DNA of 60,369 nt. Origin: Pseudomonadota bacterium (lineage in GTDB: Bacteria > Myxococcota > JACRCW01 > JAFGSX01). The notes beneath the pieces were generated by a model. The model was not told where the DNA came from. It worked only from the letters and a program-made list of their open reading frames with translations, and did no database searches. Location: positions 1-60,369 of the forward strand of contig JBDRCO010000106.1 in NCBI GenBank assembly GCA_043821645.1, read 5' to 3'. Both the position numbers and the translations under genes were made by a program. The number at the start of each line of letters is the position of its first letter. Position 1 is the stretch's first letter. Shown in pieces: positions 1,795-56,621 of the stretch.

Positions 1795-3159
1795 GTGAGC
1801 CTGATCCTGTTCGTCGATGACGACGCCACCACCCGCAGCCAGCTCAAGCAGGCGCTGGAGGAGAGCGGTCACGAGGTGCTGGTGGCCGCCAGTGGCGACG
1901 AGGCCATCGCGCGCCTGCCCACCGCGGATCTGGATCTGGTGATCAGTGACCTGCGCATGGGAACGGTCGACGGGCTGGCGGTGCTTGACGCGGTGCGATC
2001 TCAGCGTCCCGAGACCCCGGTGGTGATCCTCACCGGCCAGGGTTCCATCGACACCGCGGTCGAGGCCATGCGCCGCGGCGCCGTGGACTACCTGACCAAG
2101 CCGGTCAACCTCGACAGGCTGGACCTGGTGATCGTCAAGGCGCTGGCCAGCCGTCGCCTGCTGCGGGAAAACGCGGAGCTGCGGCGCCAGCTTGCCGGCC
2201 GCGGGGGGCTGCGCCCGCTACTGGGTGGCTCACTGCCCATGCAGCGGCTCAAGGCCGACATCGACCGCATCGCCGGCACCGTGGCTACGGTGCTGTTGCT
2301 CGGTGAGAGCGGCACGGGCAAAGAGCTGGCTGCCGAGGCTATACACCGCAACAGTTCGCGGGCAGAGCACCCCCTGATCAAGGTCAACTGCGCGGCCCTG
2401 TCCGAGGGCCTGCTGGAAAGCGAGCTGTTCGGCCACGAGCGCGGTGCTTACACCGGTGCCCACCGCAGCCGCGAGGGACGCTTCGAGGCAGCGGAGGGCG
2501 GCAGCATCTTCCTCGACGAGATCGGCGACCTCAGCGTGGCCTCACAGCTCAAGCTGCTGCGCGTGTTGCAGGAGCGCACCGTCGAGCGCGTGGGCGCCAA
2601 CGCCACGATTCCCGTGGACGTGCGCGTGATCGCCGCCACCAACAAGGACCTGCAGGCCGCGGTGCGGGACGGCAGCTTCCGCGAGGAACTCTATTACAGG
2701 CTGAGCGTCGTCACCCTGCGCTTGCCCGCCCTGCGCGACCGGCACGAGGATCTCGAGCTGCTGCTCGAGGCCTTCTTGCAGGAGTTCAACGCAATCCATG
2801 GCCGCCAGGTGCAACGGCTCAGTGGCGCCGCCCTGCAGCGCCTGCGCGCCTACGCCTGGCCAGGCAACGTCCGCGAGTTGCGCAACTGCATGGAATCCCT
2901 CGTGGTCATGGCTCGCGGCGAGAGCATCGAACTCGCCGATCTGCCTGATCACCTGCGCGCCACCGAGGCAGGCACAGATCAGTTCAGCATTCCTCTGGGC
3001 CGCACCCTTGATGACGTCGAGCGCGAGTACATCCTGCGCACCTTGAGCAGCGTGGTCGGCAACAAGGCGCGCGCCGCCCGGGTGCTCGGGATCGGCGCCA
3101 AGACCCTGTACCGCAAGCTGCACGACTACGGTTTCGTGTTCGAGGACAGGGACGGGTGA
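1795..3159 (+). CDS. Sigma54-dependent response regulator (NtrC/AtoC family: REC-AAA+-Fis HTH)
   Basis: REC domain (VDDD, DLRM, KP), Walker A GESGTGKE, GAYTGA loop, [14 protein letters not shown] and C-terminal HTH. GTG at 1795 follows a GAGGA RBS; the ORF-track start is 1732. Confidence 0.95.
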   Translation: MSLILFVDDDATTRSQLKQALEESGHEVLVAASGDEAIARLPTADLDLVISDLRMGTVDGLAVLDAVRSQRPETPVVILTGQGSIDTAVEAMRRGAVDYLTKPVNLDRLDLVIVKALASRRLLRENAELRRQLAGRGGLRPLLGGSLPMQRLKADIDRIAGTVATVLLLGESGTGKELAAEAIHRNSSRAEHPLIKVNCAALSEGLLESELFGHERGAYTGAHRSREGRFEAAEGGSIFLDEIGDLSVASQLKLLRVLQERTVERVGANATIPVDVRVIAATNKDLQAAVRDGSFREELYYRLSVVTLRLPALRDRHEDLELLLEAFLQEFNAIHGRQVQRLSGAALQRLRAYAWPGNVRELRNCMESLVVMARGESIELADLPDHLRATEAGTDQFSIPLGRTLDDVEREYILRTLSSVVGNKARAARVLGIGAKTLYRKLHDYGFVFEDRDG

Positions 3160-3428
3160 TTTTTTTTCTGCCCACTCCTGTCGCCCCAGTGTCATGGGGC
3201 ATCCTCCCGAAGTGAGTCAAATTGACATGACACTGAAAATTATCCCTACAAGTCCTCTGTCTTTTTGACAGTCATTGTAATCATTTTTCATTTTGCATGA
3301 TACACCCTGAGTGGCTATCTAATTTTTTTATGCACGTTACCTAAAAAAACAACATTGCCAGACTAGGAATTCGCAGAGAGATTGCCCCCCAATACGGTCG
3401 GCAAAAAAGCCGCGATGAGGAGGTTCTT
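3160..3428 (+). promoter_or_regulatory. AT-rich regulatory region upstream of the cytochrome cluster, with two GTC-N5-GAC palindromes
   Basis: Sharp GC drop. GTCAAATTGAC at 3216-3226 and TGTCTTTTTGACA at 3258-3270. 10-bp inverted repeat CAGTGTCATG (3187-3196) / CATGACACTG (3226-3235). AGGAGG RBS before the GTG at 3429. Confidence 0.6.
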
Positions 3429-6104
3429 GTGAGGAAGCATTTTGTTGTGAGCATCGTGGCCTCTGGCCTCGTGCTGATGGCCTGCGAAGGCCCGGCCGGG
3501 CCGGCAGGCGCAAACGGAACCAATGGCAACGGCGGCGCGCCCTGTTACGAGGGCCTGACCGATCAGAACGGCGACGGCACCGTCGACGTTCTGGATTGCC
3601 GGGGCCAGGATGGCACCAATGGTAACAACGGCACCAATGGCACCAACGGCACCAACGGCAACAATGGCAGCAACGGCATGGACGGGATCTGGCAGGGCAA
3701 CCTGTCCGGCACCGTGACCAACGCCCTGAGCAACGCCGCCATGCAGGACGTGGCCGTGGACCTGGACCCCATGCCCGCGTCCGCCACCATGGCGCACACC
3801 GACGCCAGTGGCATGTACGGCTTTGACCTGCCCATCGGCGTGTACATGGTCACCTTCTCGGCCACCGGCTACCCGGACGTGACCGAGATGGTCTCCATCG
3901 TCGCCAATGCCACCGTCATGCTGGACGTGGCCCTGTCGCCCACCGCTCCCTTCGTGGTCAGCATTGCGGCACCCACGGCAACCGCGCCGGGCGGCACCGC
4001 CACCCTGACCGCGACCGCCACCGCCTACAACGGCGCCAGCGCGCCGACCTATGCGTGGACCCAGACCGCGGGCCCCACGGCCACCATCGCCAACGGCACC
4101 ACCGCGGCGGCCGGGATCACCCTGGCCAACGTGACTGCCTACAAGACCGCCCTGTTCACGCACCTCGAGCGCCATGACCGCAACATGGTCATGGGCATCA
4201 ACCCCTTCGCCCTCGAAGAGGCTGGCCACACCGAGTTCAAGGTCACCGTGACCGCCGGCGGCAGCACCTACACCAAGACCGTCACCATGCCCGTGACCCT
4301 GCCCTGGGCCGTGGCTGCTGGTATCCGTACGATTCCCCGCAATATCCCCGTGCTGCTCAACGCCATGGACTACGGCACCTACGACTGGGCCATCGCCAGC
4401 CAGCCCTCGGGCACCGCCGATGTCCTGGTCGACGCCACCACCCGCAACCCCTACTTCGTGCCCACCAAGGTTGGTGTCTACGACCTGACCGTCAGCGGCG
4501 CCACCATGCACCTGTACGTCGACAACTACAGTGACGGCATCATCACGGGCGTCGGCACCGATGGCCGCCCCACGGTCAGCACCACCTGCACGGGCTGCCA
4601 CGATGACAGCACTGCTCCTGACAAGTTCACCCCCTGGGCCAAGTCCGGCCACGCAGAGATCTTTAGCAGCAACATCGACAACCCGGCCGGTCACTGGGGC
4701 GCTGCCTGCGCCACCTGCCACGGCATCGGCGTCGACGGCAACACCGCCAACGGCGGCATGGACGCCAAGATGGCGACCGCCAACTGGACCGTGCCGTCAC
4801 ACGGCGAGGTGGGCTACTACGAGGACATGTTCGCGGACACCAACCTGGCGCCCATCGCCAAGGCCGCCAACATCCAGTGCGAGAACTGCCACGGCCCGCA
4901 GGGCACTCTGGTTGGCCACAACAAGGTTGGCACCGACCCCATGGCCCGCACCTCCCTCGGCTCCGAGGTCTGCGCCACTTGCCACGGCGAGCCCCTGCGC
5001 CACGCCCGCTTCCAGCAGTGGGAAGAAAGCGGCCACGCCAACTACGAGCTGGCCGGGGAAGAAGGCGACAGCAGCAACTGCGGTCGCTGCCACTCGGCCG
5101 AGGGCTTCTTGGCCTGGCTGCCCGCCCTGCTCGACAACGACCCGACCAATGACACGGACAGCCTGACCGGCTACAGCAACCCCGAGCCGCACCCCCAGAC
5201 CTGCGTGGTCTGCCACGACCCGCACAGCGAGGGAACCACCACCGGCGAGCCCAACAACGCCACCGTGCGCATCACCGGCGACACCGCCAACCTGCTCAGC
5301 GGCTACGGCGCGGTGTACGGCGCTGGCCGTGGCGCCATCTGCATGACCTGCCACAGCGGCCGCCGCGGCCTGCAGAACGACAGCATCCCCCGCAGCGCCA
5401 CCTCCTACAGCACGCCGCACGGCGCCTTTGACGAGAACGGCGGCTATGGCCCGGCCCAGGTCGACGTGCTCATGGGCCAGAACGCCTACTTCACCGACGT
5501 GGGCCAGCGCTCGCCCCACAGCTACATCCAGGACACCTGTGCGTACTGCCACATGGTGGCCACCCCGCCGCCGGCCGAGTACAGCAATGCCCTGTCCGGC
5601 ACCAACCACAGCTTCCGCGCCAGCCTGAGCATCTGCGCGGAGTGCCACGGCGACTACGACGGCGAGGGCCTGCAGAGCGTGGCCAAGGCCCTGGGCAATG
5701 CCCTGCTGGACAAGCTGGGCGCCTCGGCCACGGCCGAGCTGGCCAACCGCTCGCTCAAGTTCTCGACGGGTGGCGGCCACGGCGCGCCCACCGTCGCTTA
5801 CGAGGTGGTCAGCGGCACCATCTCGCACGTCACCATGGGTGACGGCATGATCTTCAACTTCGAGTTCAGCAGCCCGGTGGCGCCGGTGGCCGGCGGCACC
5901 GCCGTGACCACGCTCGAGGGCGTGGGCATCGGCTCGGTCAAGACCATGGGTGACGTCGTTCTGTGGAGCGGCAACAGCAACCTGGTCAAGGCCATGTGGA
6001 ACTACTCCCTGATGCGCATCGACGGTTCCTACGGCGTGCACAACCCGTCGTGGACCCTGGACATGCTGCAGGGTGCCATCGACGCCGACGTGGACCTGCC
6101 GTAA
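3429..6104 (+). CDS. Outer-membrane lipoprotein multiheme cytochrome c (9 CxxCH), OmcB/OmcC-like
   Basis: Lipobox LMAC, collagen-like GxN repeats, DQNGDG Ca-loop and beta-rich N-domains. Heme motifs CTGCH, CATCH, CENCH, CATCH, CGRCH, CVVCH, CMTCH, CAYCH, CAECH. C-terminal DGSYGVHNP motif. Confidence 0.9.
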   Translation: MRKHFVVSIVASGLVLMACEGPAGPAGANGTNGNGGAPCYEGLTDQNGDGTVDVLDCRGQDGTNGNNGTNGTNGTNGNNGSNGMDGIWQGNLSGTVTNALSNAAMQDVAVDLDPMPASATMAHTDASGMYGFDLPIGVYMVTFSATGYPDVTEMVSIVANATVMLDVALSPTAPFVVSIAAPTATAPGGTATLTATATAYNGASAPTYAWTQTAGPTATIANGTTAAAGITLANVTAYKTALFTHLERHDRNMVMGINPFALEEAGHTEFKVTVTAGGSTYTKTVTMPVTLPWAVAAGIRTIPRNIPVLLNAMDYGTYDWAIASQPSGTADVLVDATTRNPYFVPTKVGVYDLTVSGATMHLYVDNYSDGIITGVGTDGRPTVSTTCTGCHDDSTAPDKFTPWAKSGHAEIFSSNIDNPAGHWGAACATCHGIGVDGNTANGGMDAKMATANWTVPSHGEVGYYEDMFADTNLAPIAKAANIQCENCHGPQGTLVGHNKVGTDPMARTSLGSEVCATCHGEPLRHARFQQWEESGHANYELAGEEGDSSNCGRCHSAEGFLAWLPALLDNDPTNDTDSLTGYSNPEPHPQTCVVCHDPHSEGTTTGEPNNATVRITGDTANLLSGYGAVYGAGRGAICMTCHSGRRGLQNDSIPRSATSYSTPHGAFDENGGYGPAQVDVLMGQNAYFTDVGQRSPHSYIQDTCAYCHMVATPPPAEYSNALSGTNHSFRASLSICAECHGDYDGEGLQSVAKALGNALLDKLGASATAELANRSLKFSTGGGHGAPTVAYEVVSGTISHVTMGDGMIFNFEFSSPVAPVAGGTAVTTLEGVGIGSVKTMGDVVLWSGNSNLVKAMWNYSLMRIDGSYGVHNPSWTLDMLQGAIDADVDLP

Positions 6105-6114
6105 CGACGACTCC

Positions 6115-6152
6115 AGGCGCGGGGCAGGCCGTCATGCCCCCGCCTTCTTTCT
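6115..6152 (+). terminator. Putative intrinsic terminator after the first cytochrome gene
   Basis: Stem AGGCG(C)GGGGCA / TGCCCCCGCCT followed by a pyrimidine/T-rich tail TCTTTCTCT. Confidence 0.55.
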
Positions 6153-6371
6153 CTCCCCTTCACTTCATCGCCTGACCACGACGCTCGACAGAGCGCGGGC
6201 GGGACTCCTCTCTTGCGGTCTGGATGCTTGCCGCACCAGGTCACTTGTGCGCGCGTTTGACCCGGGACCTGGCGAACGACTTCTGTTACAGTGACGGCCT
6301 TCGACACGAAGAGAGTTCGCTAGAAATGAAGCCGCGGGTCGTGACACAAGCACGACCTGTTCTCGTTGTGA

Positions 6372-6387
6372 TGGTGCGATTATTGCG
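6372..6387 (+). promoter_or_regulatory. Putative sigma54 -24/-12 promoter
   Basis: TGGTGCGATTATTGCG matches TGGCACG-N4-TTGC with exact GG-N10-GC spacing, about 50 bp before the ATG at 6439 (AGGAG RBS). Confidence 0.65.
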
Positions 6388-6438
6388 TCCAATCACGACG
6401 AGAAACGGTAACGACGTGACTCACGAAGGAGCACGACA

Positions 6439-7974
6439 ATGATCAGACGGATAGGCATCGCGTGTATGGGTGTGCTGGTGCTGGTGGCCTGTGGACAGGA
6501 AGGCCCCGAAGGCGCTGCGGGCAAGAACGGCGTGGCTGGTGACCCGGGCACCCCCTGCTACGAGGGTCTGACGGACCAGAATGGCGACGGCATCGTCGAC
6601 GTTCTCGACTGCCGAGGCAGCAACGGCCAGAACGGCGGCAACGGTCAGAACGGCAGCGACGGTCAGGCCTGCTGGGACCTCAACGGCAATGGCGTCGCTG
6701 ACGTGCTCACCGAGGACGCCAACGCCGACGGTCTGGTCGATGTGCTGGACTGCCGCGGCACCAACGGCAGCGACGGCCAGGACTACCAGCCGCCGACCTA
6801 CGTGGGCTGGGAAGCCTGCGCCACCTGCCACCAGGCGCTGTACGACAAGGTCGCGCGAAGTGGCCACGGCAATGCCCTGCGCGGCGTCAGCGGCGTGCGC
6901 CCGCCCAACCTGCAGCAGAACCTGAACATGACCGAGCGTCCGGCCAACGGCAACGCACCCACGGATCCGCCGGCCGGGTACACCTGGGCCGACATTTCCT
7001 ACCTGATCGGCGGCTGGGGCTGGATGGTCCGCTTCGTCGACCAGCAGGGTTACGTGATCACCTGCCCGAAGGGCGACACCGACTCCGACGGCGACGGCTT
7101 CTGCGACATCGAGTGCGGCGGCACTGCCCTCACGAGCTGCGGATCACCCGGCACGGACTTCGCCGACCAGTGGAACCTGGCCACCGACGCCAAGGTGCCC
7201 TACGAGCGCGGCACCTACCAGAAGACCTTTGACTGCGCCCCCTGCCACACCACGGGCTTCGATCCCACCCTGCCCACCCTCGACGCCAGCGGCAACATCA
7301 TGCACGGCATCCTGGGTTCCTGGAAGGAAGAGGGCGTCACCTGCGAGCGTTGCCACGGCCCGGGCAGCCGCCACATCGGCAACCCCCGCCACGAGGGCAT
7401 GGTCATCGAGCGCGACGCCGAGCTCTGCGGCGAGTGCCACACCTATGGCACCCTGGGCCAGGTCGCGGCCACCGTCGACGGCTTCGTCGAGCACACCGCC
7501 CAGTTCAACGAGCTGTACACCAGCAAGAAGTTCGTGATGCGCTGCATCGACTGCCACGACCCGCACCAGAGCGCACACTTCGCGGACAACACGCACAACC
7601 CGAACCGTAGCGTCAACCGGAGCTGTGAGGTCTGCCACTTCGAGCAGAAGGCCCGCCAGAACGACCTCGCGGGCACGGGCACGTCGTTGATGGCCTCGAT
7701 GGTCACGTGCGTGGACTGCCACATGCCCTACCTGGTCAAGTCAGCCGAAGCCAATGCCACACCCTACAAGGCGGACATGCGAAGCCACCTGTTCGCCATC
7801 AACACCGATGTGGCCGCGCCGCAGCTGGCCAGTGGCGGCAGCCTGGTCAACCCCTACCTCACGCTGACCACCGTCTGCCGCTCGTGCCACAAGCTGAACC
7901 CCACGGACACTCAGCCCTGGAGCGTCAAGAGCGATGCCGAGCTGACGCAGTCTGCGGCTGGCTACCACGACTGA
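6439..7974 (+). CDS. Lipoprotein octaheme cytochrome c (8 CxxCH)
   Basis: Lipobox LVAC, collagen-like stretch and several Dx[DN]xDG loops. Heme motifs CATCH, CAPCH, CERCH, CGECH, CIDCH, CEVCH, CVDCH, CRSCH. Confidence 0.9.
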   Translation: MIRRIGIACMGVLVLVACGQEGPEGAAGKNGVAGDPGTPCYEGLTDQNGDGIVDVLDCRGSNGQNGGNGQNGSDGQACWDLNGNGVADVLTEDANADGLVDVLDCRGTNGSDGQDYQPPTYVGWEACATCHQALYDKVARSGHGNALRGVSGVRPPNLQQNLNMTERPANGNAPTDPPAGYTWADISYLIGGWGWMVRFVDQQGYVITCPKGDTDSDGDGFCDIECGGTALTSCGSPGTDFADQWNLATDAKVPYERGTYQKTFDCAPCHTTGFDPTLPTLDASGNIMHGILGSWKEEGVTCERCHGPGSRHIGNPRHEGMVIERDAELCGECHTYGTLGQVAATVDGFVEHTAQFNELYTSKKFVMRCIDCHDPHQSAHFADNTHNPNRSVNRSCEVCHFEQKARQNDLAGTGTSLMASMVTCVDCHMPYLVKSAEANATPYKADMRSHLFAINTDVAAPQLASGGSLVNPYLTLTTVCRSCHKLNPTDTQPWSVKSDAELTQSAAGYHD

Positions 7975-44358: not shown

Positions 44359-45033
44359 TCAGCCCCCTGCCCTGGCCTGGCTCCAGTCGAGGATGGGCCA
44401 GCCCCGTCGTCGCGCCAGGCGCCCCAGGCGAAGATCCGGCTGCACCACGCGCGGGTTCTGCACGCGCTCCAGCATGGGCAGGTCGGTGATGCTGTCGGTA
44501 TAAAAAAAGCTCCGGTCGATGTCGATGCCGTGCTCCGCGGCGAAGCGCTCGGCATGCACGACCTTGCCCGCGCCGTAGCAAAGTGGTCGCACCACGTCGC
44601 CCGTGAACCGTCCCTCGACAACCTGGTAACGCGTGCTTAGCCAGGCATCCAGACCGAAGTGCGCCGTCGCCGCTTCGGACTCGTAGGGTGACGAGGCCGT
44701 GAGCAGGACGCACAGGTGTCCCTGATCGCGATGGTCTTGCAGGGCCGCTCGCGCCCCCGGTGCCTCGTGCTGCTTGACCTCGCGATCAAACCAGTCCCGG
44801 GTCCGGCTGCGCACCGTGTCCTCGTCGACACCTTTGACCGTCTGCAGAGCCTTGACCATCACGCCGTCCATGTCGACCGCGTGCAGCGAGTAGGCGAACA
44901 GGTAAAAGGTCGCCTCGACCATCTGCCAGGCGCTGACGCGTTTTTCCTGCCGTTCGCGCTCGAGCCACAGCCTGCCGCTGTTGACCGTGATCAGGGTGCG
45001 ATCGAGATCGAAGAAAGCAGCGATGCGGCTCAT
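44359..45033 (-). CDS. HAD-IB family hydrolase (SerB-like)
   Basis: FFDLDRTL, LTAS, GKV and YTDSITDLPML. Confidence 0.88.
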   Translation of the reverse strand: MSRIAAFFDLDRTLITVNSGRLWLERERQEKRVSAWQMVEATFYLFAYSLHAVDMDGVMVKALQTVKGVDEDTVRSRTRDWFDREVKQHEAPGARAALQDHRDQGHLCVLLTASSPYESEAATAHFGLDAWLSTRYQVVEGRFTGDVVRPLCYGAGKVVHAERFAAEHGIDIDRSFFYTDSITDLPMLERVQNPRVVQPDLRLGRLARRRGWPILDWSQARAGG

Positions 45034-45064: not shown

Positions 45065-45469
45065 TCACCCGCCGCGCCCGCCCTCGCCGAAGAAATTGAC
45101 GCTATCGTATAGCTCCACATCTGCACCGTACATGCGCACCTCGTCGTGGTGCACCACGAAGGTCGCCTGCTCGCCGAAGTTCTTGCTGAAGTACACCCGC
45201 TGGGGCTCGCCCTCCTCGTCCAGGCGCAGCACGTGGCACAGGTTGCGGCTGACCGGGCTGGTCAAGTCCTCGCCACACACCGGGCAGGCTAGCTGCACCC
45301 GGTCGCCCTCGCTGAGGACCAGATCGTCGCCGACAATGGTCTTGTAGTTGCCCACCTGCGGGCTGAGCAGGACCAGACCCCGCTTGCGGCCATGCCCAAT
45401 GCGAAGCACGACCTTGTTGCCCGGGTTGAGCGAGGCCTTGCAGTGAGGGCACCGGTAGCTGTTGGACAT
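45065..45469 (-). CDS. Hypothetical protein with two CxxC motifs (Zn-ribbon-like)
   Basis: GAGGAG RBS; CPHC and CPVC. Confidence 0.65.
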   Translation of the reverse strand: MSNSYRCPHCKASLNPGNKVVLRIGHGRKRGLVLLSPQVGNYKTIVGDDLVLSEGDRVQLACPVCGEDLTSPVSRNLCHVLRLDEEGEPQRVYFSKNFGEQATFVVHHDEVRMYGADVELYDSVNFFGEGGRGG

Positions 45470-45620
45470 GCAGGCTCTCCTCGCGGCGCTGGATCGATGA
45501 CGACGGAGCGTTGAACCTGGCACAGCCCGCTGCCCGGGACAAGGGCCCTTCTTGACCACGCGGGGCTTCCCGGCGGCGCAGGTCGTGCGCCCTCAACAGG
45601 ACAGCAGCGCATTGACGACG

Positions 45621-46652
45621 TCAAACAGGTCCCGAATGTTCCAACAATCGCCACAGGCATGCGGGCTCACCGAGCCGCGCTCCGTCCGTGTCATGGAGCG
45701 TGCCGCGGGTCGCCACGGTGCGGCCTGGACAGCCTCCGCGACAGCTCGCGATGCTTTCGCAGCCCGCGCAGGCGCCACCGGGCAGCTGGGCCGCCAGCTC
45801 CCGCTGCACGCGCTGCATGGCCTCGCCGAAGAGGATCTCGTGCACGAGCCGGGTGCGCGTGTTGCCCGCGAGGTAGTCCGGAAACATGAGCGCCGTGCAG
45901 GGGTACACGTCGCCCACGGCGGTGATGTAGGCCATGCGCTGGCCAGCATGGCAGCGGAACATCGAGTGGCCAGGGTAAGCTCCGGTGGGGCAGTCGACGA
46001 TCAGGTCGAGACCCGGACGCGTCTGCTCGCGCGCCACCACCTCGAAGAAGCGGCGCACCTGCTCGCTGGACCAGGCCTGCTCGTCGTATCCCTGTCCGGC
46101 CGCGCGCCCCACCGGCGCCCACAGCGTGTAGCGCAGGCCAGTGACGCCGAGCTGGCGAGCCAGCGCGATCATGGGCTCGATCTCGCCCGCGGTCTCAGGT
46201 GCCAGCAGGGTGCACAGGTAGGTCTCGAGCCCCTGGCGCATCCCCTCCTGGGCCGCCTCGATGGCGCGCTCGTAGGCGCGGCTTGGCCCCACGCGCAGGC
46301 GCCGGGCGGCCTCGGCGGTGACCCCGTCGAGGCTCACCTGCAGCACGCCCAGACCGTTGATTCTGAGCGCACGCAGGCGTTCGGCGCTGGCAAGCAGGCC
46401 GTTGCTGGCCAGCCCCACCGCCATGCCACAGCGTGACGCCAGCCAGGTCAGGGCGTCGAGATCGTCGCGCAGCAGCGGCTCGCCGCCCGACCAGCCCAGG
46501 GTGTCGACGCCGCAGGCGGCGAGATCGCGGATCAGGGCGCCCGCCTCGGCGGTATCCATCTCGTCGTCACGGGGCCGCCCGGCGTCGACGAAGCAGTGCC
46601 GGCACTTGAAGTTGCAGCGCCGCGTGATCTCGAGGCCGACGGTGAAGCGCAC
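45621..46652 (-). CDS. Radical SAM protein with SPASM domain
   Basis: CNFKCRHC, SGGEPL and VSLDG. SPASM C-x17-C (CHAG..GDVYPC), Cx2Cx5Cx3C and a terminal Cys. Confidence 0.9.
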   Translation of the reverse strand: MRFTVGLEITRRCNFKCRHCFVDAGRPRDDEMDTAEAGALIRDLAACGVDTLGWSGGEPLLRDDLDALTWLASRCGMAVGLASNGLLASAERLRALRINGLGVLQVSLDGVTAEAARRLRVGPSRAYERAIEAAQEGMRQGLETYLCTLLAPETAGEIEPMIALARQLGVTGLRYTLWAPVGRAAGQGYDEQAWSSEQVRRFFEVVAREQTRPGLDLIVDCPTGAYPGHSMFRCHAGQRMAYITAVGDVYPCTALMFPDYLAGNTRTRLVHEILFGEAMQRVQRELAAQLPGGACAGCESIASCRGGCPGRTVATRGTLHDTDGARLGEPACLWRLLEHSGPV

Positions 46653-46691
46653 GATGGTCAGGTGTCAGGATGCTGGGGCCCGCGTCGCCGC

Positions 46692-47411
46692 TCAGCCATC
46701 CTTGCGACGAGTCCGCTTGCGCGAACTGGGAGCGACGATGCCGATGGGCTTGCGCGCCCTGCCTTTGCGACCCTTCTTGCCCGTGCCCGGGGGCGGCATG
46801 ATGTTCATGGGCCCGTCGTGACCCGTCCCCGGCGGCGGCATGATGTACAGCGGTCCGTCGTGGCCGGTTCCCGGAGGCGGCATGATGTAGATCGGTCCGT
46901 CGTGACCCGTCCCTGGCGGCGGCAGGATGTACAGCGGTCCGTCATGGCCGGTGCCTGGAGGCGGCATGATGCCGATGGGACCGCCACCCGTGCCCGGGCG
47001 CGTGCGCCCGTCGGGCGCGATGATGTAGTACGGCCCATCCGTGCCCGGACGTCCACCCGGGGGCATGATGAAGATGGGCTCACCGCCCGATCCCGGCCCC
47101 TTGCCCTGTTGCTTGGCCTGGGCCTCGATCTGCGTGCGATTGAAGCTCCGCGCCGGCTTGTGCTGCGCGCCGGGCGTCTGCTTCTGCAGACCGTCGAGGC
47201 TGTCTCCCTTGTTTCCGAGGTTGAAGGTCTTGCCAGCGACCGTGAAGCTGTCCGGAAACTCGAGCGTGGTGCCCGGCTTCACGTCCTTGGCGCTCTTCAG
47301 CTGGTTGAGCTGGGCGACCTGCTTGGCCGCTTCGGCCACATGCTTGGCCGGCACGCCTTTGTCGCGCAGGATCTGAGACAGGTTCTGACCCTTCTTGACC
47401 GAGACCTTCAT
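46692..47411 (-). CDS. LysM-like protein with C-terminal 14-aa tandem repeats (candidate radical SAM substrate or precursor)
   Basis: GGGGAGGT RBS; VKKGQNLSQI..LNQL..VKPGTTLEFP is LysM-like; repeats IMPPPGTGHDGP[LIM][YN]; basic tail. Confidence 0.75.
   Translation of the reverse strand: MKVSVKKGQNLSQILRDKGVPAKHVAEAAKQVAQLNQLKSAKDVKPGTTLEFPDSFTVAGKTFNLGNKGDSLDGLQKQTPGAQHKPARSFNRTQIEAQAKQQGKGPGSGGEPIFIMPPGGRPGTDGPYYIIAPDGRTRPGTGGGPIGIMPPPGTGHDGPLYILPPPGTGHDGPIYIMPPPGTGHDGPLYIMPPPGTGHDGPMNIMPPPGTGKKGRKGRARKPIGIVAPSSRKRTRRKDG
46779..46970 (-). repeat. Coding tandem repeat, ~4.6 x 42 bp (IMPPPGTGHDGPLY consensus), with degenerate copies to ~47080
   Basis: I[ML]PPPGTG occurs five times at 42-bp spacing, with synonymous variation between copies. 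Confidence 0.9.
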
Positions 47412-49161: not shown

Positions 49162-49653
49162 ATGAAGATGACACGCATGATGACCCTGGCCGTATTTGGA
49201 CTGGGAGCCCTGTTGCTGGCCACCACCGCGGAGGCTCGCGGTCCCCGAGGGCAAGGCCGAGGTGGCCATGGCGGCAAGGGCGGCATGGGCCCACAGATGC
49301 TCGAGCAGCTCGACCTGAGCAACGAGCAGCGCACCCAGATCGAGAAGTCGCAGCTCGCGATGCGACAGGATCTCGTCGATATCAAGGCCCAGCTGCGCGA
49401 GAAGAAGGATCAGCTGCGCGACCTGTGGCTGGCGGACAACCCCAGCGAGAAGTCCATCCTGGCCAAGCACAAGGAGATGGATCCCCTTCGCAACAAGATC
49501 CGCGAGCGCAAGATCAAGCATCGCCTCGAGGTCCACAAGATCCTGACGCCGGATCAGCGCGCCAAGCTGGGCGAGCTGGCCAAGAAGCGCGGCAAGGGTC
49601 CTGGCGGCCCACGCGGACCCGGTGGCCCCGGCTTCGACCGGGAGGATGACTAG
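49162..49653 (+). CDS. Spy/CpxP/ZraP-family periplasmic chaperone or signal protein
   Basis: Signal peptide, Gly-rich region, and LTxxQ-type motifs LDLSNEQR and ILTPDQR. Confidence 0.85.
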   Translation: MKMTRMMTLAVFGLGALLLATTAEARGPRGQGRGGHGGKGGMGPQMLEQLDLSNEQRTQIEKSQLAMRQDLVDIKAQLREKKDQLRDLWLADNPSEKSILAKHKEMDPLRNKIRERKIKHRLEVHKILTPDQRAKLGELAKKRGKGPGGPRGPGGPGFDREDD

Positions 49654-49690
49654 CACTCTTTCTCCGGCTCCTCGACGACAGCAGGGCTGA

Positions 49691-50986
49691 ATGTCGCACG
49701 ATCGCATGAGCAGCTCGACCCCACCGCGTCACGCCAGGAGTGCACGGTGGGGTCTTCTCGTCGTCACCGTGATGACCGCCCTGGCCCTGATCCTGTCGGC
49801 CCTGGCGGGCATTGCCGGCGCTCGACGGGGGTCCGACGCCGTCACCCAGGCGGTGGGCTTTGGCCTGGTGCGCGAGATCCGGCGCGAGCTGATGTGGAGC
49901 CGGGGGGAGCCCCAGAGCGCCCTGGACCTGGCCCTGGAAGATCTGCGGGATGAGGGCCTGCGATTTGTTGGGGTCTTCGGAGGCCGCGGCGCTCTGGTGG
50001 CCTCGGCCGGAGTAGCGCTCACTCCGATAAGCAACCTGCCTCCGCCGCCCGAGAAGGGCGAGCAAGTTCTCGTTGTCGACGGCGGTCAGCGCGCGCTGGT
50101 GGTTGTCCCCCTGCGCCCCCAGCGCCGCAAGCACGGCGAATCACCGCCCTGGATGAAGGGCCCCGAGCGGCGACGCATGGCACTGGTTGTCGAGTTCGAG
50201 CCCCTGGCGTCGCGGGCCGTGATTCGCCGTGCCCGCATCACCTTCGGGGTCAGTGCCATCGCGGCCGCGGCCTTGATGCTGGTGGCGCTGGTGTTCTGGC
50301 GCATGTCCCGTCGAGCCGAGCACGCCGAGCTGCAGCTTCAGGACGATAGGCAGCTCAAGAGCCTGGGCCAGATGTCCGCGGTGCTGGGTCACGAGTTGCG
50401 CAACCCTCTGGCCTCGCTCAAAGGGCATGCCCAGCTGGTCGTCGAGAAACTCGATCTGTCCCACGCAGCGAGGCGAAGTGCGGATCGGGTCGTGCAAGAG
50501 GCCACCCGCCTGGAACAGCTCACCGGGCAGGTGCTGGACTTCGCTCGCTCGGGCCAGCTGGATCGTCAGCCCACCGCGATCCGAGCTCTGCTCGAGGACG
50601 CTGTGGCGAGCAGTGAAGCGACCCCGGTCCAGATCAACGTCGATGGCTCGTCCCTGGAGTGGTCCATGGACCGCCCTCGCATGGAGCAGGTGCTGGTGAA
50701 TCTGCTGCGCAACGCACGCCAGGCCTGCGAAGGGGACGCCGAGGTGCTGGTGGGTGCGCGCGTCGACAACGGACAGCTGCTGCTCGAGGTTCGCGACCAT
50801 GGGCCCGGCATCGCGGCGGACGATCTGGACAGGATCTTCGAGCCCTTCGTGACCACGAGGGTGCGTGGCACCGGTCTGGGCCTCGCCCTTGCCCGCCGCA
50901 TCGTCGAGGAACATGGAGGCCGCATCTCTGCAAGCAACCAGCCCGGGGGCGGTGCCCGCTTCGTCATCGAGATCCCCCAACGCTGA
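49691..50986 (+). CDS. Sensor histidine kinase (ZraS-like)
   Basis: Two TM helices; HELRNPL, NLLRNA, DHGPGI and GTGLGL. Confidence 0.92.
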
Positions 50987-50995
50987 GGACGGGCC

Positions 50996-52321
50996 ATGGA
51001 ACGCGCACTGGTGGTCGACGACGAGGAGGGAATCCGCAGCTTCATCCAGGAAGTCCTGGAGGGCGAGGGCCTGGCCGTGACCACCGCCGTCGACGGTCAG
51101 CAGGCCCGCGAACTCCTCGACCGCCAGGCTTTTCACCTGTTGATCACGGACCTCAAGATGCCGCGTCTCGACGGCATGAGCCTGCTGCGTCAGGCGCGGG
51201 CCCTGGCTCCGGAGATGGAGGTCCTGGTGCTCACCGCCCACGGCACCGTGGACAGCGCAGTCGAGGCCATGAAGCTGGGCGCCCACGACTACCTGGCGAA
51301 GCCACTCTCCGGACCTGGCGAGCTCAGGCTGGTGGTACAGCGCGCCCTCGAGCACCGCAGGTTGCGCGACCTCCAGCAACGGACCCAGCGCAGCGTCGAA
51401 GACGGGGCGCAGGTGGTGGCCGAGGATCCCGCCATGCGCGCAGTGCTGGCCCAGCTTGGCAAGGTCGCTCCGACCCAGGCCAGCGTGCTGCTGCTGGGCG
51501 AGAGCGGCACGGGCAAGGACCTGGCTGCGCGCTGGATTCACGCCCACAGCCCACGCCACGGTGGCGCCTTCGTGGCGATCAACTGCGCTGCGATGTCAGC
51601 GCAGCTCGTCGAGAGCGAGCTGTTCGGGCACGAGAAAGGCGCCTTCACGGGTGCCAGCGAGAGACGCCGGGGTCGCTTCGAGCTGGCAGACGGAGGAACG
51701 CTCTTCCTCGACGAGGTGGCCGAGCTTCCTCTCGAGCTCCAGCCCAAGCTCCTGCGCGTGCTGCAGGAGCGACGCTTCGAGCGAGTCGGGGGCTCGCGCA
51801 CCCTCGAGGTGGATGTACGCGTGGTCGCCGCCACCAACCGCGACTTGCAACAGCAGATGCAGCAGGGGCATTTCCGCGAAGATCTGTACCACAGGCTGGC
51901 CGTGTTCCCTGTGATGTTGCCAGCCCTTCGGGATCGTCCCGCGGACATCGAACCTCTGGCGACGACCTTGTTGCAGAGCAGCGCTGCCGAGCTTGGTAAG
52001 CCAGTCACGGGATTCACCGCCGCGGCCCTGGCGCTCCTGCGGCGCTACCCCTGGCCCGGCAACGTGCGTGAACTGGGCAATGCCGTCGAGCGCGCCGTGA
52101 TCCTGGTCGATGGAGACTGCATTACCGAGGAGCACCTGCTGCTGGGTCCGGTTTCTCCCGCCGCGGCCCCTGCCCTGTCCGGCAGCCTGCGCGAACTCGA
52201 GCGCGAGGCCATACGCCAGGCCCTGGTGCAGCACGGCGGCCATCGCAAGCGAGCAGCAGAGCAGCTCGGACTACCTCTGCGCACCCTCTACGCCAAGCTC
52301 AAGGAGCACGAACTGGACTAG
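50996..52321 (+). CDS. Sigma54-dependent response regulator (ZraR/AtoC-like)
   Basis: REC domain, [28 protein letters not shown] and HTH. Confidence 0.95.
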
Positions 52322-52373: not shown

Positions 52374-55300
52374 ATGACACGGTCTGTGCACGGGAAGGTC
52401 TGCGCAAGCGGGTCCTGGCGCTTTGCACCGCGCTTCGCTGCGCTGACCCTCGTCGTCATGTGCATCGCTGATGCCGCACCGGCCCAGGTCGAACAGGACC
52501 TTGCCACCGCAGCTGGGGTGATCCAGCTCGATGGCCCCGCGAGCAACAAGCTCGGGGGTGAATTCCTGGCGAATGCCTTCAGCGTTTACTGGGACGCCAC
52601 CTCGACCGGCAACAGCACGGGCCTGGGCCCTGCCAGCCAGCGCGGCGTTGTCACCTGCGACTTCGATGGTGACGGGCTGCTCGACCTGGCGGTGAGCGCC
52701 CCGGGCTACTCCAGCAATCGCGGCGCGGTCTACGTGTTCTATGGCACTCCCACGCCCACCCGATCCGGCATCGTCGATCTCAACACCTCGACGAACTTCG
52801 ACGTGCGCATCAACGGCGCGAGCGGTGGCCACTTCGGCGTGGACATCGCCGCAGGAGATGTCAACGACGACGGCTACTGCGACCTGCTGGTCGGCTCCTC
52901 GAACCGCAGCAACCAGGGCTCCATCTACCTCTACCTGGGTGGAGCCAGGGCAGCCGGCACCTTCTTCCCCCCCAGCCCCGGAGCCACCCTCGACGGCAGC
53001 ACCAGCTACAGCCTGCGCATCTCACCGTCCGCCTCGACGGACTCGCGCGCCTATTCCGTGACGGTGGGCGACGTGTCCGGCGACGGCGTCCCCGACTTCA
53101 TGGTGGGCGCGATTTTCTTCGACCGCTCAGGGCAGCAGGATGCCGGCGCTGTCGCGATCTACTTCGGCGCGAACACCGCGACCCGGGCCAACACCAGCGG
53201 CCTCAACCTGGACTTCGACACCGTGGCCGCAGCAGGCCAGACCTGGAATGGCTTCAACGTGCGCTACCAGGCCGAGGAAGGCTACAACTCCGGTTTCCTG
53301 CAGTACCACGGCCCGACCGAGAACCTGGGCACGGCCATGGCAGCGCTGGACGTCGACGGCGATGGTGTGAAGGACGTGATCCTGGGCGCACCCTGCCCCG
53401 AGCTGAGCTACGCCGGCGGAACGACCACCTCGACGGGCAGCATCTACTTCATCCGCGGAGGTGGAACCGCGAGCGGCAGCGGCACGGTCAACCTGGGGAG
53501 TGGCGACCTCATCCTGGGCGCCGCCGGCACCTACCATCTGCGTCTGAATGGTGTGCAGGACTACGCCCACATCGGGGGAGCGCTCACCGGTGGCGAGGTC
53601 ACGGGAGATACGGCCGAGGACATCGTGGTGGCGGCGCCCTATGGCTGGTACGGAGGGAGCAACACCAGCCGGCGAGGTACGGTCTACTTGATTCCAGGGA
53701 GCACCAGCTGGCAGGCGCTCAGTAAATCCAACAACAATGCCAACCTCGACGACGCGGTGTACCACTCCACCTGGCGTTTCGACGGCGCGGCCGACAGCGA
53801 CGAGCTCCGCAGTGTGGCCGTGGGCGACGTTGATGGGGACGGTCAGGCCGACATCTTGATGGGTGCTCCTGGTCTCGACCCGAGTGGCCGCAACAACGCC
53901 GGTGGCGTCTACGAGTTCTTCGGACCTCTCGACGGCAACGGCACCGTGGATCTCGGAAACGTCACACCTGCGTACGATCGAAGGGTTGTTGGGGCCGCCG
54001 CAGGTGATCAGCTCGGGCTGACGTTGGACGTGAGTGCCTTTGCCTGCGCCAAGCCCCGCCGCGTCCTGGCCGCGCCCTACGCGTCGAGCAACGCGGGCAA
54101 GGTCTACCTCATGCCCTCCGAGGACCCGGACACCACCTGCAACAACCAGGACGAGGATTGCGACGGCGCGCCGGACGACGACTATGCGTCGCAGCCGACC
54201 ACCTGCGGCCAGGGGGTGTGCGCGTCCACGGGGACCGAGACATGTGCTGGTGGCGTGCTGCAGGACTCCTGCACGCCGGGCACACCAACGGGCACCGACA
54301 ACAACTGCAACGGCATCGACGAGAACTGTGTCGGAGGCAACGACGAGAACTACGTTGCCCTGGTGACCAACTGTGGCACGGGGGTCTGCGCCAGCACCGG
54401 GGCGACTTCGTGCGTCGGCGGTGCCGTGCAGGATTCCTGTACCCCTGGGGCTCCGACGGGGGCCGATGACAACTGCAACGGCATCGACGAGGACTGCGTC
54501 GGTGGAGCCGATGACAAATACACCCCCGTACCCACCAATTGTGGCGCTGGCGTGTGCGCGAGCACCGGCGCGACCGCCTGCGTCGGCGGCGCTGTGCAGG
54601 ACTCCTGCACCCCTGGCGCTCCCACGGGCACCGACAACAACTGCAATGGCGTCGACGAGAACTGCGTCGGAGGCGCGGACGAGAACTACGTGCCACTGGC
54701 GACGAACTGTGGCACGGGAGTCTGCGCCCGGACCGGTTCCACCACGTGCGTGGGCGGCACCGAGCAGGACTCCTGCACCCCGGGTGCGCCGACCGGCACG
54801 GACAACAACTGCAACGGCGTCGACGAGAACTGCGTCGACGGTAGTGACGAGAACTACGTGCCGCTGGTGACGAACTGCGGCACGGGAGTCTGCGCCGGTA
54901 CCGGGACCACATCCTGCGTCGGTGGCACCTTGCAGGACTCGTGCACGCCAGGCGCTCCGACGGGACCGGACAACGATTGTAATGGCATCGACGAGAATTG
55001 CGTCGGGGGTGTGGACGAGAACTACGTCCCGGTCACCACGACCTGCGGGCAAGGCGTGTGCCAGCGCAGCGGAATGTCCTCGTGCGTCAACGGTGTCACC
55101 CAGGACTCCTGCGCCCCGGGCCGCGCCACGGGCGCCGACGACAACTGCAACAACGTCGACGAGAACTGCTCGGGCGGCGCGGACGAGAACTACCCGTCCC
55201 AGCCCACGAGCTGCGGGCTCGGCGTGTGCGCGCGGACCAGCAGTACGGCCTGCGTCCTGGGTGCGGTGGAGGATCTCTGCATCCCCGGGACGGCCACGGG

Positions 55301-56621
55301 TCTCGATGACGACTGCAACGACGTCGACGAGGATTGCTCCGGGGTGGCGGATGACCGCTATACCTCCCATGCCACCCGCTGCGGCACAGGCGCCTGCGCT
55401 TCGACAGGGGTGACCTCGTGCAGCGGGGGCGTCGAGGGGAACAGCTGCGTGCCGGGAGTGCCTCTGTCAGCGACCGACGGCACCTGCGACAACGTCGACG
55501 ACGACTGCGACGGGCAGACCGACGAGGATGCCAGTACAACCGGCGACTGCGCGGGTCTGGCACGTGGCGCCTGCGAACGCGTCGTGTGCCTGTCCAGCGA
55601 ATTTCGGTGCGAGGTGGAGCATCTGCCTGGGTGCTGCAGCGCGGACCAGGACTGCCAGACTCCAGGCTCGTGTGTGCTCGGTCGTTGCGACCTGGACACC
55701 GCAACCTGCCAGCACGACAGGCCAGCTCGCTGCTGCAGCGAGGCCAGTGACTGCGACGATGGCAACGCCTGCACCGACGACAGCTGCGACTCCCGGAGCG
55801 GCGTCTGCGAATCACGCGAGGTTTTTGATTGCTGTCAAACAGATCAGGACTGTGACGACGGTGATGCGTGCTCCGCGGACCTGTGCACGGACCTCGACCG
55901 CTGCGCGCACCGTCCGACCTCCTGCACGGTCGACGGCCCCTGCGGCCAGGAGCTGGCCTGTCTATACAGCGGGCTGCTGGTGACGCGCAGCCAGGGCAGT
56001 CCTGGCGGTGTGATGGTGCAGCAGAGAAGCTCGCAGCTCGTGCTGGGTCTGGGCCTGACCACCGCGGCCATCGGCGGGCACCTGCGCAGTCTGCGCCTGG
56101 CCCTCAGTGGTGTGTCCGACGCTGCCCTGGCTGAGAACACGCTCCGCGCGAGGCTCTACCATGACATCGACGCCAATGGTCAGGTCGATCCGGGGGACAC
56201 GGTCCTGGCCGACACCCTGAGTGATCGCCACGGGGTGTTTGTGCTTGCCGCCGATCCCGGTTTGCGACTTGCTCCCGCCACCCACGAGGCACTTCTGGTG
56301 AGCCTGCAGGTCATCACCCCCGACAGCGGGGCCTGCGCGGTCACCGACCTCAGGCCGAGCTGGTGGTTCTCGCTGGTCTTGCTGCTGGTCCTGCGCTCCC
56401 GCCGGAAGCAGCCAGGTCCCCGGTGGCGACGGCGCCGCTGGTGGCTGGCTGGCGTGCTCATCCTCGGCATGGCCTGCGTTCGCACGGGCTACTACGACGT
56501 CGTGGATGCGCGCCTCGTGCTGCAGGCCGCCACGGATCTTCAGGTCCAGGCCGGTGCCAACGAGGCTCTGTCCGTGCTGGGAGCACCAGTCACCAGCGTG
56601 CCGTTCAAGATCATGCTGTGA
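52374..56621 (+). CDS. Large cell-surface protein: FG-GAP (integrin-alpha-like) propeller, Cys-rich repeats and C-terminal membrane anchor
   Basis: Repeated D[FV][DN]GDG.xDL.vGAP..GxVY motifs, eight 56-aa CNGxDExC repeats, CDDGNxCTxDxC units and a MYXO-CTERM-like segment near the end. Confidence 0.85.
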   Translation: MTRSVHGKVCASGSWRFAPRFAALTLVVMCIADAAPAQVEQDLATAAGVIQLDGPASNKLGGEFLANAFSVYWDATSTGNSTGLGPASQRGVVTCDFDGDGLLDLAVSAPGYSSNRGAVYVFYGTPTPTRSGIVDLNTSTNFDVRINGASGGHFGVDIAAGDVNDDGYCDLLVGSSNRSNQGSIYLYLGGARAAGTFFPPSPGATLDGSTSYSLRISPSASTDSRAYSVTVGDVSGDGVPDFMVGAIFFDRSGQQDAGAVAIYFGANTATRANTSGLNLDFDTVAAAGQTWNGFNVRYQAEEGYNSGFLQYHGPTENLGTAMAALDVDGDGVKDVILGAPCPELSYAGGTTTSTGSIYFIRGGGTASGSGTVNLGSGDLILGAAGTYHLRLNGVQDYAHIGGALTGGEVTGDTAEDIVVAAPYGWYGGSNTSRRGTVYLIPGSTSWQALSKSNNNANLDDAVYHSTWRFDGAADSDELRSVAVGDVDGDGQADILMGAPGLDPSGRNNAGGVYEFFGPLDGNGTVDLGNVTPAYDRRVVGAAAGDQLGLTLDVSAFACAKPRRVLAAPYASSNAGKVYLMPSEDPDTTCNNQDEDCDGAPDDDYASQPTTCGQGVCASTGTETCAGGVLQDSCTPGTPTGTDNNCNGIDENCVGGNDENYVALVTNCGTGVCASTGATSCVGGAVQDSCTPGAPTGADDNCNGIDEDCVGGADDKYTPVPTNCGAGVCASTGATACVGGAVQDSCTPGAPTGTDNNCNGVDENCVGGADENYVPLATNCGTGVCARTGSTTCVGGTEQDSCTPGAPTGTDNNCNGVDENCVDGSDENYVPLVTNCGTGVCAGTGTTSCVGGTLQDSCTPGAPTGPDNDCNGIDENCVGGVDENYVPVTTTCGQGVCQRSGMSSCVNGVTQDSCAPGRATGADDNCNNVDENCSGGADENYPSQPTSCGLGVCARTSSTACVLGAVEDLCIPGTATGLDDDCNDVDEDCSGVADDRYTSHATRCGTGACASTGVTSCSGGVEGNSCVPGVPLSATDGTCDNVDDDCDGQTDEDASTTGDCAGLARGACERVVCLSSEFRCEVEHLPGCCSADQDCQTPGSCVLGRCDLDTATCQHDRPARCCSEASDCDDGNACTDDSCDSRSGVCESREVFDCCQTDQDCDDGDACSADLCTDLDRCAHRPTSCTVDGPCGQELACLYSGLLVTRSQGSPGGVMVQQRSSQLVLGLGLTTAAIGGHLRSLRLALSGVSDAALAENTLRARLYHDIDANGQVDPGDTVLADTLSDRHGVFVLAADPGLRLAPATHEALLVSLQVITPDSGACAVTDLRPSWWFSLVLLLVLRSRRKQPGPRWRRRRWWLAGVLILGMACVRTGYYDVVDARLVLQAATDLQVQAGANEALSVLGAPVTSVPFKIML
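54129..55475 (+). repeat. Coding tandem repeat, 8 x 168 bp (56 aa, 6 Cys each) plus a partial ninth copy
   Basis: Consensus DNNCNGxDENCxGGxDENY....TNCGTGVCAxTGxTSCVGGxxQDSCTPGxPTG at 168-bp spacing. Confidence 0.9.

Follow-up and report, generated by a model that had tools for sequence, protein, structure and literature searches.

A 60,369-nucleotide stretch of contig JBDRCO010000106.1 (assembly GCA_043821645.1, from a Pseudomonadota bacterium that GTDB places in the Myxococcota), here called the window, carries on its minus strand two adjoining genes. One encodes a protein with repeated isoleucine-centered motifs, or cores (P0001), and the other encodes a radical S-adenosylmethionine (rSAM) enzyme with a SPASM domain (P0002, also called rSAM#1). 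Here, the pair was followed across genomes, and we propose that it probably forms a minimal enzyme-substrate module. Its features are as follows (aa, amino acids; AF2, AlphaFold2; RRE, precursor peptide recognition element; TRF, Tandem Repeats Finder).

46692..47411 (-): gene for the 239-aa core-repeat protein P0001, putative substrate/precursor, stop codon included (translation)
47238..47411 (-): LysM-like N-terminal domain, about residues 1 to 58 of P0001 (sub-threshold Pfam match, AF2, Foldseek)
46728..47078 (-): array of eight Ile-centered cores in P0001 (regular expression)
47058-47078, 47013-47033, 46959-46979, 46917-46937, 46875-46895, 46833-46853, 46791-46811, and 46728-46748 (-): the individual cores (regular expression)
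46780..46971 (-): 42-nt tandem repeat, 4.6 copies, encoding 14-aa units GTGHDGP[LIM][YN]I[LM]PPP (TRF)
46695..46796 (-): basic C-terminal tail of P0001, enclosing the last core, PIGIVAP (translation)
46653..46691 (-): 39-nt spacer between the P0001 and P0002 genes (sequence and site scan)
45621..46652 (-): gene for the 343-aa rSAM/SPASM enzyme P0002, with no RRE domain (Pfam, AF2)
46593..46616 (-): CX3CX2C rSAM cluster motif, C13/C17/C20 of P0002 (translation; alignment A1)
45657..45992 (-): SPASM region with the seven-Cys motif and an invariant C221 (Pfam; alignment A1)

The core-repeat protein P0001

The first-pass annotation, made from the window sequence alone, had described a 239-aa protein with a LysM-like N terminus, no signal sequence, degenerate cores flanking a repeat, and a basic tail, and the translation bears this layout out. 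No N-terminal hydrophobic stretch was seen in P0001, as judged by eye and without a signal-peptide predictor. Lys or Arg accounts for 13 of the final 34 residues. Eight segments match P[ILMVY][YFGN]I[IVML][AP]P, namely, PIFIMPP, PYYIIAP, PIGIMPP, PLYILPP, PIYIMPP, PLYIMPP, PMNIMPP, and PIGIVAP. Four of these cores lie inside full, near-identical 14-aa GTGHDGP-x-x-I-x-PPP units, and TRF reports a period of 42 nt with 4.6 copies and 82% matches, in agreement with the roughly five units noticed at first. Among the four units (six unit pairs), 30 codon differences were synonymous and 11 were nonsynonymous, which indicates peptide-level selection on the repeat frame.

When the window's 7.07-Mb genome was translated in six frames, a strict core motif, written from the window alone, was found in one of 63,081 open reading frames (ORFs) of at least 60 aa, and that ORF was P0001. 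This uniqueness far exceeds chance expectation. The enzyme gene is co-oriented and starts with a GTG codon 39 nt past the P0001 stop codon, close to the 40 bp first given. In the promoter and terminator scan, no sigma-70-like or terminator-like site was found between or before the two genes; the sole terminator-like site lay at 44908-44920, away from the spacer. The ESM Atlas model of P0001 has a predicted local distance difference test (pLDDT) score of 0.49, that is, it is poorly ordered by prediction. Its look-alikes in that atlas (score 0.76 to 0.77, template modeling score <0.4) are leads pointing to LysM.

A phmmer search gave 24 matches, including P0001, P0123, and P0125. Twelve matches were inspected, and six of these were unrelated low-complexity repeat proteins. 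P0123 is a homologue of P0001 with 38% identity and the same architecture, and P0161 is a further homologue that shares the LysM-like domain and the cores. A repeat-region match in G002 (L002, E value of 1e-5) was rejected as a relative, since its repeat is of the DGPIRSLP type and no rSAM gene lies in the 2.4 kb seen. This L002 protein (G002:C98, 432-881, plus strand), from a genome of the same class, has about six DGPIRS[LF]P-[DE]-A-x-A units and is probably unrelated.

The N terminus of P0001 scored 16.5 bits (E value of 0.008) against Pfam LysM (PF01476), below the cut-off of 20.9. An AF2 model of residues 1 to 70 (pLDDT of 81, from a four-row alignment) shows a strand-helix-helix-strand order, and its top matches in the PDB by Foldseek were almost only LysM domains, each of them weak (E values of 0.009 to 0.9). 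Judging from this model, "LysM-like fold" would be a fair label. Peptidoglycan binding is doubtful because P0001 appears to have no signal peptide. Among core-bearing precursors, the domain was limited to P0001, P0123, and P0161, and the remaining precursors have five other scaffolds, so the earlier suggestion of LysM as a leader does not hold for the family in general. The same domain also occurs without cores, in L004/P0165, L003, P0148, P0150, and P0153. As a side observation, this module (M-x-V-x-V-x-x-G-D-T-L...G-V-P...F-P-D-x-F) opens at residue 1 of several proteins of 89 to 405 aa that are otherwise unrelated (1450-1668 in L004, G000:C12; 1444-1710 in L003, G003:C242; also P0148, P0150, and P0153). 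Its carriers apparently have no signal peptides, which is odd for a peptidoglycan-binding domain.

P0002 belongs to an unnamed rSAM/SPASM family

P0002 matched Pfam Radical_SAM (PF04055) with 81.5 bits (cut-off, 29.5; E value of 1e-22) and Pfam SPASM (PF13186) with 30.7 bits (cut-off, 21.5; E value of 3.8e-7). In A1, an alignment and profile of 27 P0002-family members, C13, C17, and C20 are nearly invariant (at least 90%). All seven Cys residues of the full SPASM domain recognized in the first-pass annotation were located (C234, G247-x4-C252, C295-x2-C298-x5-C304-x3-C308, and C332), and all seven are invariant in A1. P0002 has no fused RRE, as its rSAM core opens at residue 8. No RRE was found on the window contig, and the genome's four PqqD-domain matches, three of which exceed the Pfam cut-off, are all on other contigs.

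No NCBIfam cut-off was reached by P0002, including those of AhbD, NirJ, MftC, and PqqE. The scores were 124 bits for MftC (cut-off, 265), 94 for PqqE (381), 122 for a pseudo-SAM family (525), and 119.5 for GeoRSP (400). For the heme-pathway models, 111 bits were obtained for AhbD (cut-off, 500), 95 for AhbC (650), 99 for NirJ (515), 87 for NirJ1 (650), and 123 for NirJ2 (500). P0002 thus falls outside the AhbC/AhbD/NirJ group (87 to 123 bits against cut-offs of 500 to 650), membership in which the first-pass annotation had named as one outcome that would undo its reading.

In a collection of 5.8 billion proteins, the close family of P0002 comprised 64 clusters at 45 to 56% identity (E values of 5e-120 to 3e-84), and the next match was at 36%. 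By sequence, the family is discrete, sharply bounded, and unnamed. Its members are annotated just as "radical SAM protein" and occur in Myxococcales and deltaproteobacterial metagenome-assembled genomes. The nearest solved structures by sequence were PqqE (6c8v, E value of 1e-32), SkfB (3e-27), and CteB. An AF2 model of P0002 (pLDDT of 90) was superposed best by Foldseek on PqqE (rank 1), SkfB, SuiB, anSME, and CteB, and these nearest fold relatives are all peptide- or protein-modifying SPASM enzymes. A complex prediction with the A1 enzyme, residues 150 to 210 of P0001, S-adenosylmethionine, and three 4Fe-4S clusters scored 0.01 and gives no verdict either way.

The enzyme and a core protein are paired across genomes

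A scan of a genome collection with A1 gave 79 loci, among them nine orthologues at 45 to 57% identity (L025 to L032 and L047). The flanks were readable at ten loci: the window, L025 to L032, and L006 of G001 (same family), which holds a homologue at 36% identity. At all ten, an ORF with Ile-centered cores adjoins the P0002-family enzyme. With the pairing kept at 10/10 loci and no NCBIfam cut-off reached, the first-pass proposal of a candidate new rSAM/SPASM modification system with a conserved repeat ORF beside the enzyme holds. The core ORF lies upstream on the same strand at eight loci, downstream in L026, and in convergent orientation in G001.

The cores themselves vary from locus to locus. 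The core protein of L025 has four [RP]IYAIMP copies, and that of L026 has seven GP-I-[NGY]-I-I-[AV]-x-PP copies. Two or three PIYILPP copies are present in each of the L027, L028, and L029 proteins, and L029 contains AHDGPIYILPP, which matches the window unit. L030 has PIYIMAP and PMYIVAP, L031 has four GGGV[MW]AI[MV]AQGG copies, and G001 has six cores, for example, PPIGIVATPP and RVFAIVAPS. The carrier proteins are 115 to 458 aa long and fall into six unrelated scaffolds (LysM-like, G001 type, L025, L031, L026, and "type A") with the core alone in common; no Pfam or NCBIfam name was obtained for any of the six. The L025 and L031 carriers have an N-terminal hydrophobic stretch ending in Cys and are lipoprotein-like by eye, and the L026 carrier has a hydrophobic segment followed by a long C-terminal domain of about 200 aa. 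The strict motif was present at 4/9 orthologue loci, compared with 0/70 nonorthologue genome loci and 0/79 metagenome loci.

In the metagenome scan with A1, one orthologue, the incomplete L104, was found among the 80 matches listed. When the ORFs of 12 loci were clustered, only the rSAMs and type-A precursors recurred in at least three loci, besides their antisense shadows. By this criterion (at least 3/12 loci), no protease, exporter, or RRE is conserved across loci, consistent with the earlier remark that none is visible near the pair.

Contig records add to this picture. P0123 and an rSAM orthologue, P0020, are both recorded on 6328-nt contigs, and a 6328-nt contig (run X1) aligns in patches to both window genes, within 46100-47034. 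A related population with a two-gene module (P0020 and P0123) appears to coexist with the window's organism. For four type-A precursors, contig sizes are shared with rSAM#1 orthologues (4550, 4310, and 3481) or the pairing is seen directly in L027 to L029 and L032. Matching contig sizes (4550, 4310, 3481, and 6328) are indirect evidence that favors the pairing of precursor and rSAM#1.

What is conserved in the core

In the periodic arrays that were read, the family keeps hydrophobic-x-Ile-[ILMV]-[A/P], with a rare G, S, or V in the fifth position. The center of the core is always Ile in these arrays, including those of P0001, L025, L026, L031, and G001. The residue directly before it is Y, A, G, N, M, F, or S; Tyr is the commonest, in 40 of the 72 cores defined by regular expression. 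The first-pass annotation had regarded the His- and Tyr-containing 14-aa repeat as the modified core, and this view is not supported. Most relatives lack the His-Asp-Gly part of the window unit, and other residues can take the place of Tyr. The L031 cores (GVMAIMAQ) contain no Pro, Tyr, or His and stand in a Gly-rich setting. An aromatic residue is absent from 3/8 cores in P0001 (PIGIMPP, PMNIMPP, and PIGIVAP), 5/7 in L026, and 3/4 in L031.

A second maturase accompanies the type-A precursors

A second SPASM maturase, rSAM#2, lies directly upstream of the type-A precursor at five loci (L027 to L030 and L032), and these loci, which have Ile cores, carry rSAM#1 as well. rSAM#2 came closest to the models for nif11-class and GDL-motif maturases but scored below their cut-offs (240 and 221 bits). 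In the type-A precursor, N-terminal K-Y-[MAG]-V-V-P repeats are combined with Ile cores at the C terminus. A profile search for such precursors gave 21 clusters, 13 with C-terminal Ile cores (P0140, with a lone atypical Ile core, is counted here) and eight without. In G281 and G378, the type-A precursors have no Ile cores and only those of the K-Y-M-V-V-P type; rSAM#2 adjoins them (60% and 53% identity, respectively), and no rSAM#1 was found in either genome at an E value of ≤1e-60. Thus, rSAM#1 goes with the Ile cores, and the K-Y-M-V cores go with rSAM#2.

This sister system was seen at L191 (G281:C20, approximately 5594-7337), L192 (G378:C419, approximately 2876-4596), and L027 (4028-5890). 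Its maturase (about 376 aa, unnamed) stands beside type-A precursors with one to seven K-Y-[MLIAG]-V-[VR]-P repeats, as counted by regular expression, and a conserved helical middle domain. The system is found with or without rSAM#1.

In L006 (G001:C327, 1447-3930, minus strand), an 827-aa fusion protein carries the rSAM#1 homologue as its C-terminal half, and its N-terminal half is similar to B12-dependent rSAM C-methyltransferases (KedN5 family, 95 bits versus 700). The fusion suggests that a second tailoring step may act on the same cores.

A proposed minimal module for motif-directed modification

We consider that rSAM#1 and the core protein form a minimal enzyme-substrate module for motif-directed modification at the Ile core, with a probability of about 0.65. 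The conserved pairing, the conserved core, and the class of the enzyme were observed directly; the placing of the modification at the core, and its chemistry, are our inference. In such a module, rSAM#1 would recognize the short linear core hydrophobic-x-Ile-[Ile/Met/Leu/Val]-[Ala/Pro] directly and without an RRE, since no RRE is present and the scaffolds are interchangeable. Each core copy in the neighboring protein would then be modified posttranslationally. Recognition would be motif-directed, like that of anSME on the sulfatase motif, and not leader-directed.

Because no nucleophilic or aromatic partner residue is conserved, the chemistry would be partner independent, most plausibly a two-electron oxidation of the conserved Ile or of a position adjacent to it, with a change of -2 Da per core. 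This oxidation is our leading guess by analogy, and about one third of the probability given above would fall to it. It is favored over a YydG-type epimerization because P0002 keeps a full SPASM domain with two auxiliary clusters, a trait of oxidative SPASM enzymes. The product could be, for example, a ring of the methyl-cyclopropylglycine type, which TigE makes, or a C-C link of very short range. A modified protein is a more likely end product than a released small peptide, as the carriers are whole proteins and no protease or exporter is conserved. In addition, the tailoring partners (rSAM#2 and the B12-rSAM-like fusion in G001) are typical of peptide-modifying pathways and support the module.

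Several points weigh against this interpretation. Because the five type-A loci belong to a single lineage, the ten loci amount to about six independent scaffold types rather than ten independent observations. In L032, just one core, CYYIIAP, is present. No core ORF was found in the available sequence of L047 and L104, where the contig end truncates the rSAM gene and hides its downstream side. Under a relaxed pentamer rule (at least three cores per ORF), 4/9 orthologues matched, compared with 6/70 and 7/79 controls, although the control matches were unrelated, nonperiodic pentamers in long ORFs. In the tally of 72 cores, the central Ile was fixed by the regular expression, and its constancy is that of the arrays themselves. 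Moreover, the family is rare and patchy, with A1 profile matches in 3/401 sampled genomes of the phylum, and for the proposed chemistry we have only analogy and the number of SPASM cysteines to go by.

A bolder version of the proposal is tentative, and we hold it at well below even odds. In this version, rSAM#1 might be a leader-independent "protein editor" that reads a hydrophobic motif of 5 to 7 residues and installs a modification on an unactivated Ile, or between this Ile and the aliphatic residue beside it, in full-length proteins that are LysM-like and cytoplasmic, lipoprotein-like, or membrane anchored, and rSAM#2 might do likewise on K-Y-M-V-V-P cores. If true, this would be a new class of protein posttranslational modification and not a peptide natural product.

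Comparison with known systems

An rSAM/SPASM maturase with a multicore substrate is a known kind of system; what is new here is the enzyme clade, the Ile core, the missing RRE, and the protein-sized, interchangeable carriers. anSME, also a SPASM enzyme, needs no leader peptide to modify a short linear motif of a full-length protein, and it is a structural neighbor of the P0002 model (4k36-4k39, Foldseek ranks 7 to 15). However, anSME oxidizes Cys or Ser to formylglycine, whereas the cores here have no Cys/Ser requirement, and the 25 best NCBIfam rows for P0002 did not include the sulfatase_rSAM model. PqqE and MftC are the best relatives of P0002 in sequence and fold, are similar in size, and have no fused RRE. 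P0002 nevertheless falls below their cut-offs, no PqqD/MftB-type partner lies on its contig, and their substrates are Glu...Tyr or C-terminal Val-Tyr peptides, unlike P0001. Triceptide maturases act on repeated short motifs in one precursor and require an aromatic residue in every motif. The multimotif precursor and the rSAM/SPASM enzyme are shared with our system, but many of the cores here are nonaromatic. Aro-Xaa-Asn motifs are mentioned in the available part of PMC9062424.

Cyclopropyl synthases offer the closest chemical analogy used here. In the portions of PMC10878394 and PMC9062424 available to us, TvgB and TigE act on Val or Ile of the TVGG repeats of TvgA and the TIGSVS repeats of TigB, with -2 Da per repeat. 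As described in those portions, they resemble the present system in combining an rSAM/SPASM enzyme with a precursor that carries many copies of a short motif with a constant unactivated Val or Ile, and their reaction is intraresidue and partner free. The tig cluster, as presented there, also contains a second rSAM, as do the type-A loci (PMC10878394; PMC9062424). GYW is described as strictly conserved in cyclopropyl synthases, its Tyr being a ligand of auxiliary cluster I (PMC10878394, accessible part). This motif was found in none of the 27 A1 rows of the P0002 family, P0002 included, and P0002 is therefore not a member of the cyclopropyl-synthase family, although it may work like one. TigE (8vpo) is also distant from P0002, with an E value of 8.6e-7 by sequence and a Foldseek rank of 34. 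For its activity, TigE required flavodoxin/flavodoxin reductase as the reductant (PMC10878394). Finally, the clusters of TvgB and TigE contain transporters, peptidases, and 60-aa peptides, whereas here the carriers have 115 to 458 aa and no protease or exporter is conserved. A precedent for a protein-sized substrate is a methanogen SPASM rSAM that installs thioether cross-links in proteins (PMC13692751, available part), but this is cysteine chemistry, and the cores here contain no Cys.

Alternative explanations

Several other explanations of the pair have to be weighed. The enzyme might act as a C-alpha epimerase, converting the conserved Ile or the aliphatic residue beside it to a D-residue without a change in mass, as YydG/EpeE does. 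Epimerization needs no partner residue and fits cores whose sole constant is the Ile-aliphatic pair. The fusion of the G001 enzyme to a B12-rSAM methyltransferase-like domain fits as well, resembling proteusin pathways, which pair an epimerase with a C-methyltransferase. According to the available part of PMC13012085, YydG/EpeE is an rSAM whose targets are Ile and Val residues in a ribosomal peptide, with no partner residue involved, and EpeE epimerizes Ile12 and Val4 of its substrate. EpeE, however, is described there with one auxiliary cluster, a truncated "T-SPASM," and Cys223 as the hydrogen donor (PMC13012085), whereas P0002 has a full seven-Cys SPASM. Furthermore, the profile similarity of P0002 to YydG is confined to the N-terminal 90 residues (residues 4 to 90, E value of 4e-9), while that to PqqE (1e-32) and SkfB (3e-27) is full length. 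Epimerization is therefore regarded as unlikely. Cross-linking or splicing of the Tyr and His residues of the 14-aa units, as carried out by triceptide, streptide, mycofactocin, and spliceotide maturases, would agree with Tyr standing before Ile in 40/72 regular-expression cores, with the occurrence of both His and Tyr among the four window units, and with MftC (124 bits) and PqqE (94 bits) being among the nearest NCBIfam matches. Since these scores are far under the cut-offs of 265 and 381, H-D-G is absent in most relatives, and 3/8, 5/7, and 3/4 of the cores of P0001, L026, and L031, respectively, are nonaromatic, this explanation is improbable.

Two further explanations would deny the repeat protein its role as a substrate. 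The enzyme might be an rSAM for a cofactor or small molecule (AhbD/NirJ-like in heme synthesis, or PQQ/mycofactocin-like), with the repeat protein a mere neighbor or a nonsubstrate partner. NirJ2, AhbD, MftC, and PqqE are indeed among its best NCBIfam matches (94 to 124 bits), PqqE is the best solved relative by both sequence and fold, and the contig has no RRE. However, no curated cut-off is reached, and no heme d1, Ahb, PQQ, or mycofactocin genes are conserved nearby, only rSAMs and core proteins recurring in at least 3/12 loci. Adjacency to a core protein also survives changes of scaffold and orientation, and no such enzyme accompanies the precursors that lack Ile cores (G281 and G378), so we rate a cofactor role about as improbable as aromatic cross-linking, if not slightly more so. 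The least credible explanation, in our estimate, takes the repeat ORF for a fast-evolving structural protein of low complexity and the shared core for a product of convergent composition, not a recognition site. It would account for Pro/Gly-rich, poorly ordered proteins (ESM Atlas pLDDT of 0.49) and for the unrelated low-complexity repeat proteins that phmmer also retrieved. It is contradicted by a strict motif confined to one ORF of a 7-Mb genome and found at none of the 149 control loci, by codon differences within the array that are mostly synonymous, and by the L031 core, which is kept without Pro.

Implications of the proposed enzyme-substrate module

New peptide chemistry comes mainly from rSAM/SPASM enzymes, and for families without a characterized member, we know of no way to predict function from sequence. 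No description of the P0002 family, the Ile cores, or their pairing was found in full-text searches, whose scope did not extend to subscription journals or to the supplementary tables of rSAM atlases, and neither partner has a specific model in Pfam or NCBIfam. The pair therefore offers a clean two-gene test case, in which a compact, RRE-free enzyme stands beside a sharply defined motif repeated eight times in one putative substrate, and the natural core variants already indicate which positions tolerate change. If the cores are modified, an unactivated isoleucine would be the site of new chemistry, or else the installation of cyclopropyl groups or D-residues would have arisen a second time independently. 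The reach of SPASM enzymes would also be extended further from peptides to whole proteins. Motif-directed recognition of this kind would also serve protein tagging.

Other genes in the window

Directly downstream of the rSAM gene, 45065-45472 (minus strand) encodes a 135-aa protein with two CxxC pairs and sub-threshold matches to zinc-ribbon Pfam models, which does not recur at the other loci. This Zn-ribbon protein and the neighboring HAD-IB hydrolase, methionine gamma-lyase-like enzyme, and AI-2E-type permease were rejected as pathway members, as none of them recurs in at least 3/12 loci. On the plus strand at 49162-52321, the gene for a Spy/CpxP-like periplasmic protein precedes those for a sensor histidine kinase and a sigma-54-type response regulator, as read from their translations. 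These genes, about 2 kb from the two-gene module, may be an envelope-stress module. A gene at 52374-56621 (plus strand) encodes a 1415-aa protein with FG-GAP-like N-terminal repeats, again judged from the translation. This protein also contains about eight Cys-rich units of roughly 45 aa each (C-N-G-[IV]-D-E-[ND]-C ... C-G-x-G-V-C).

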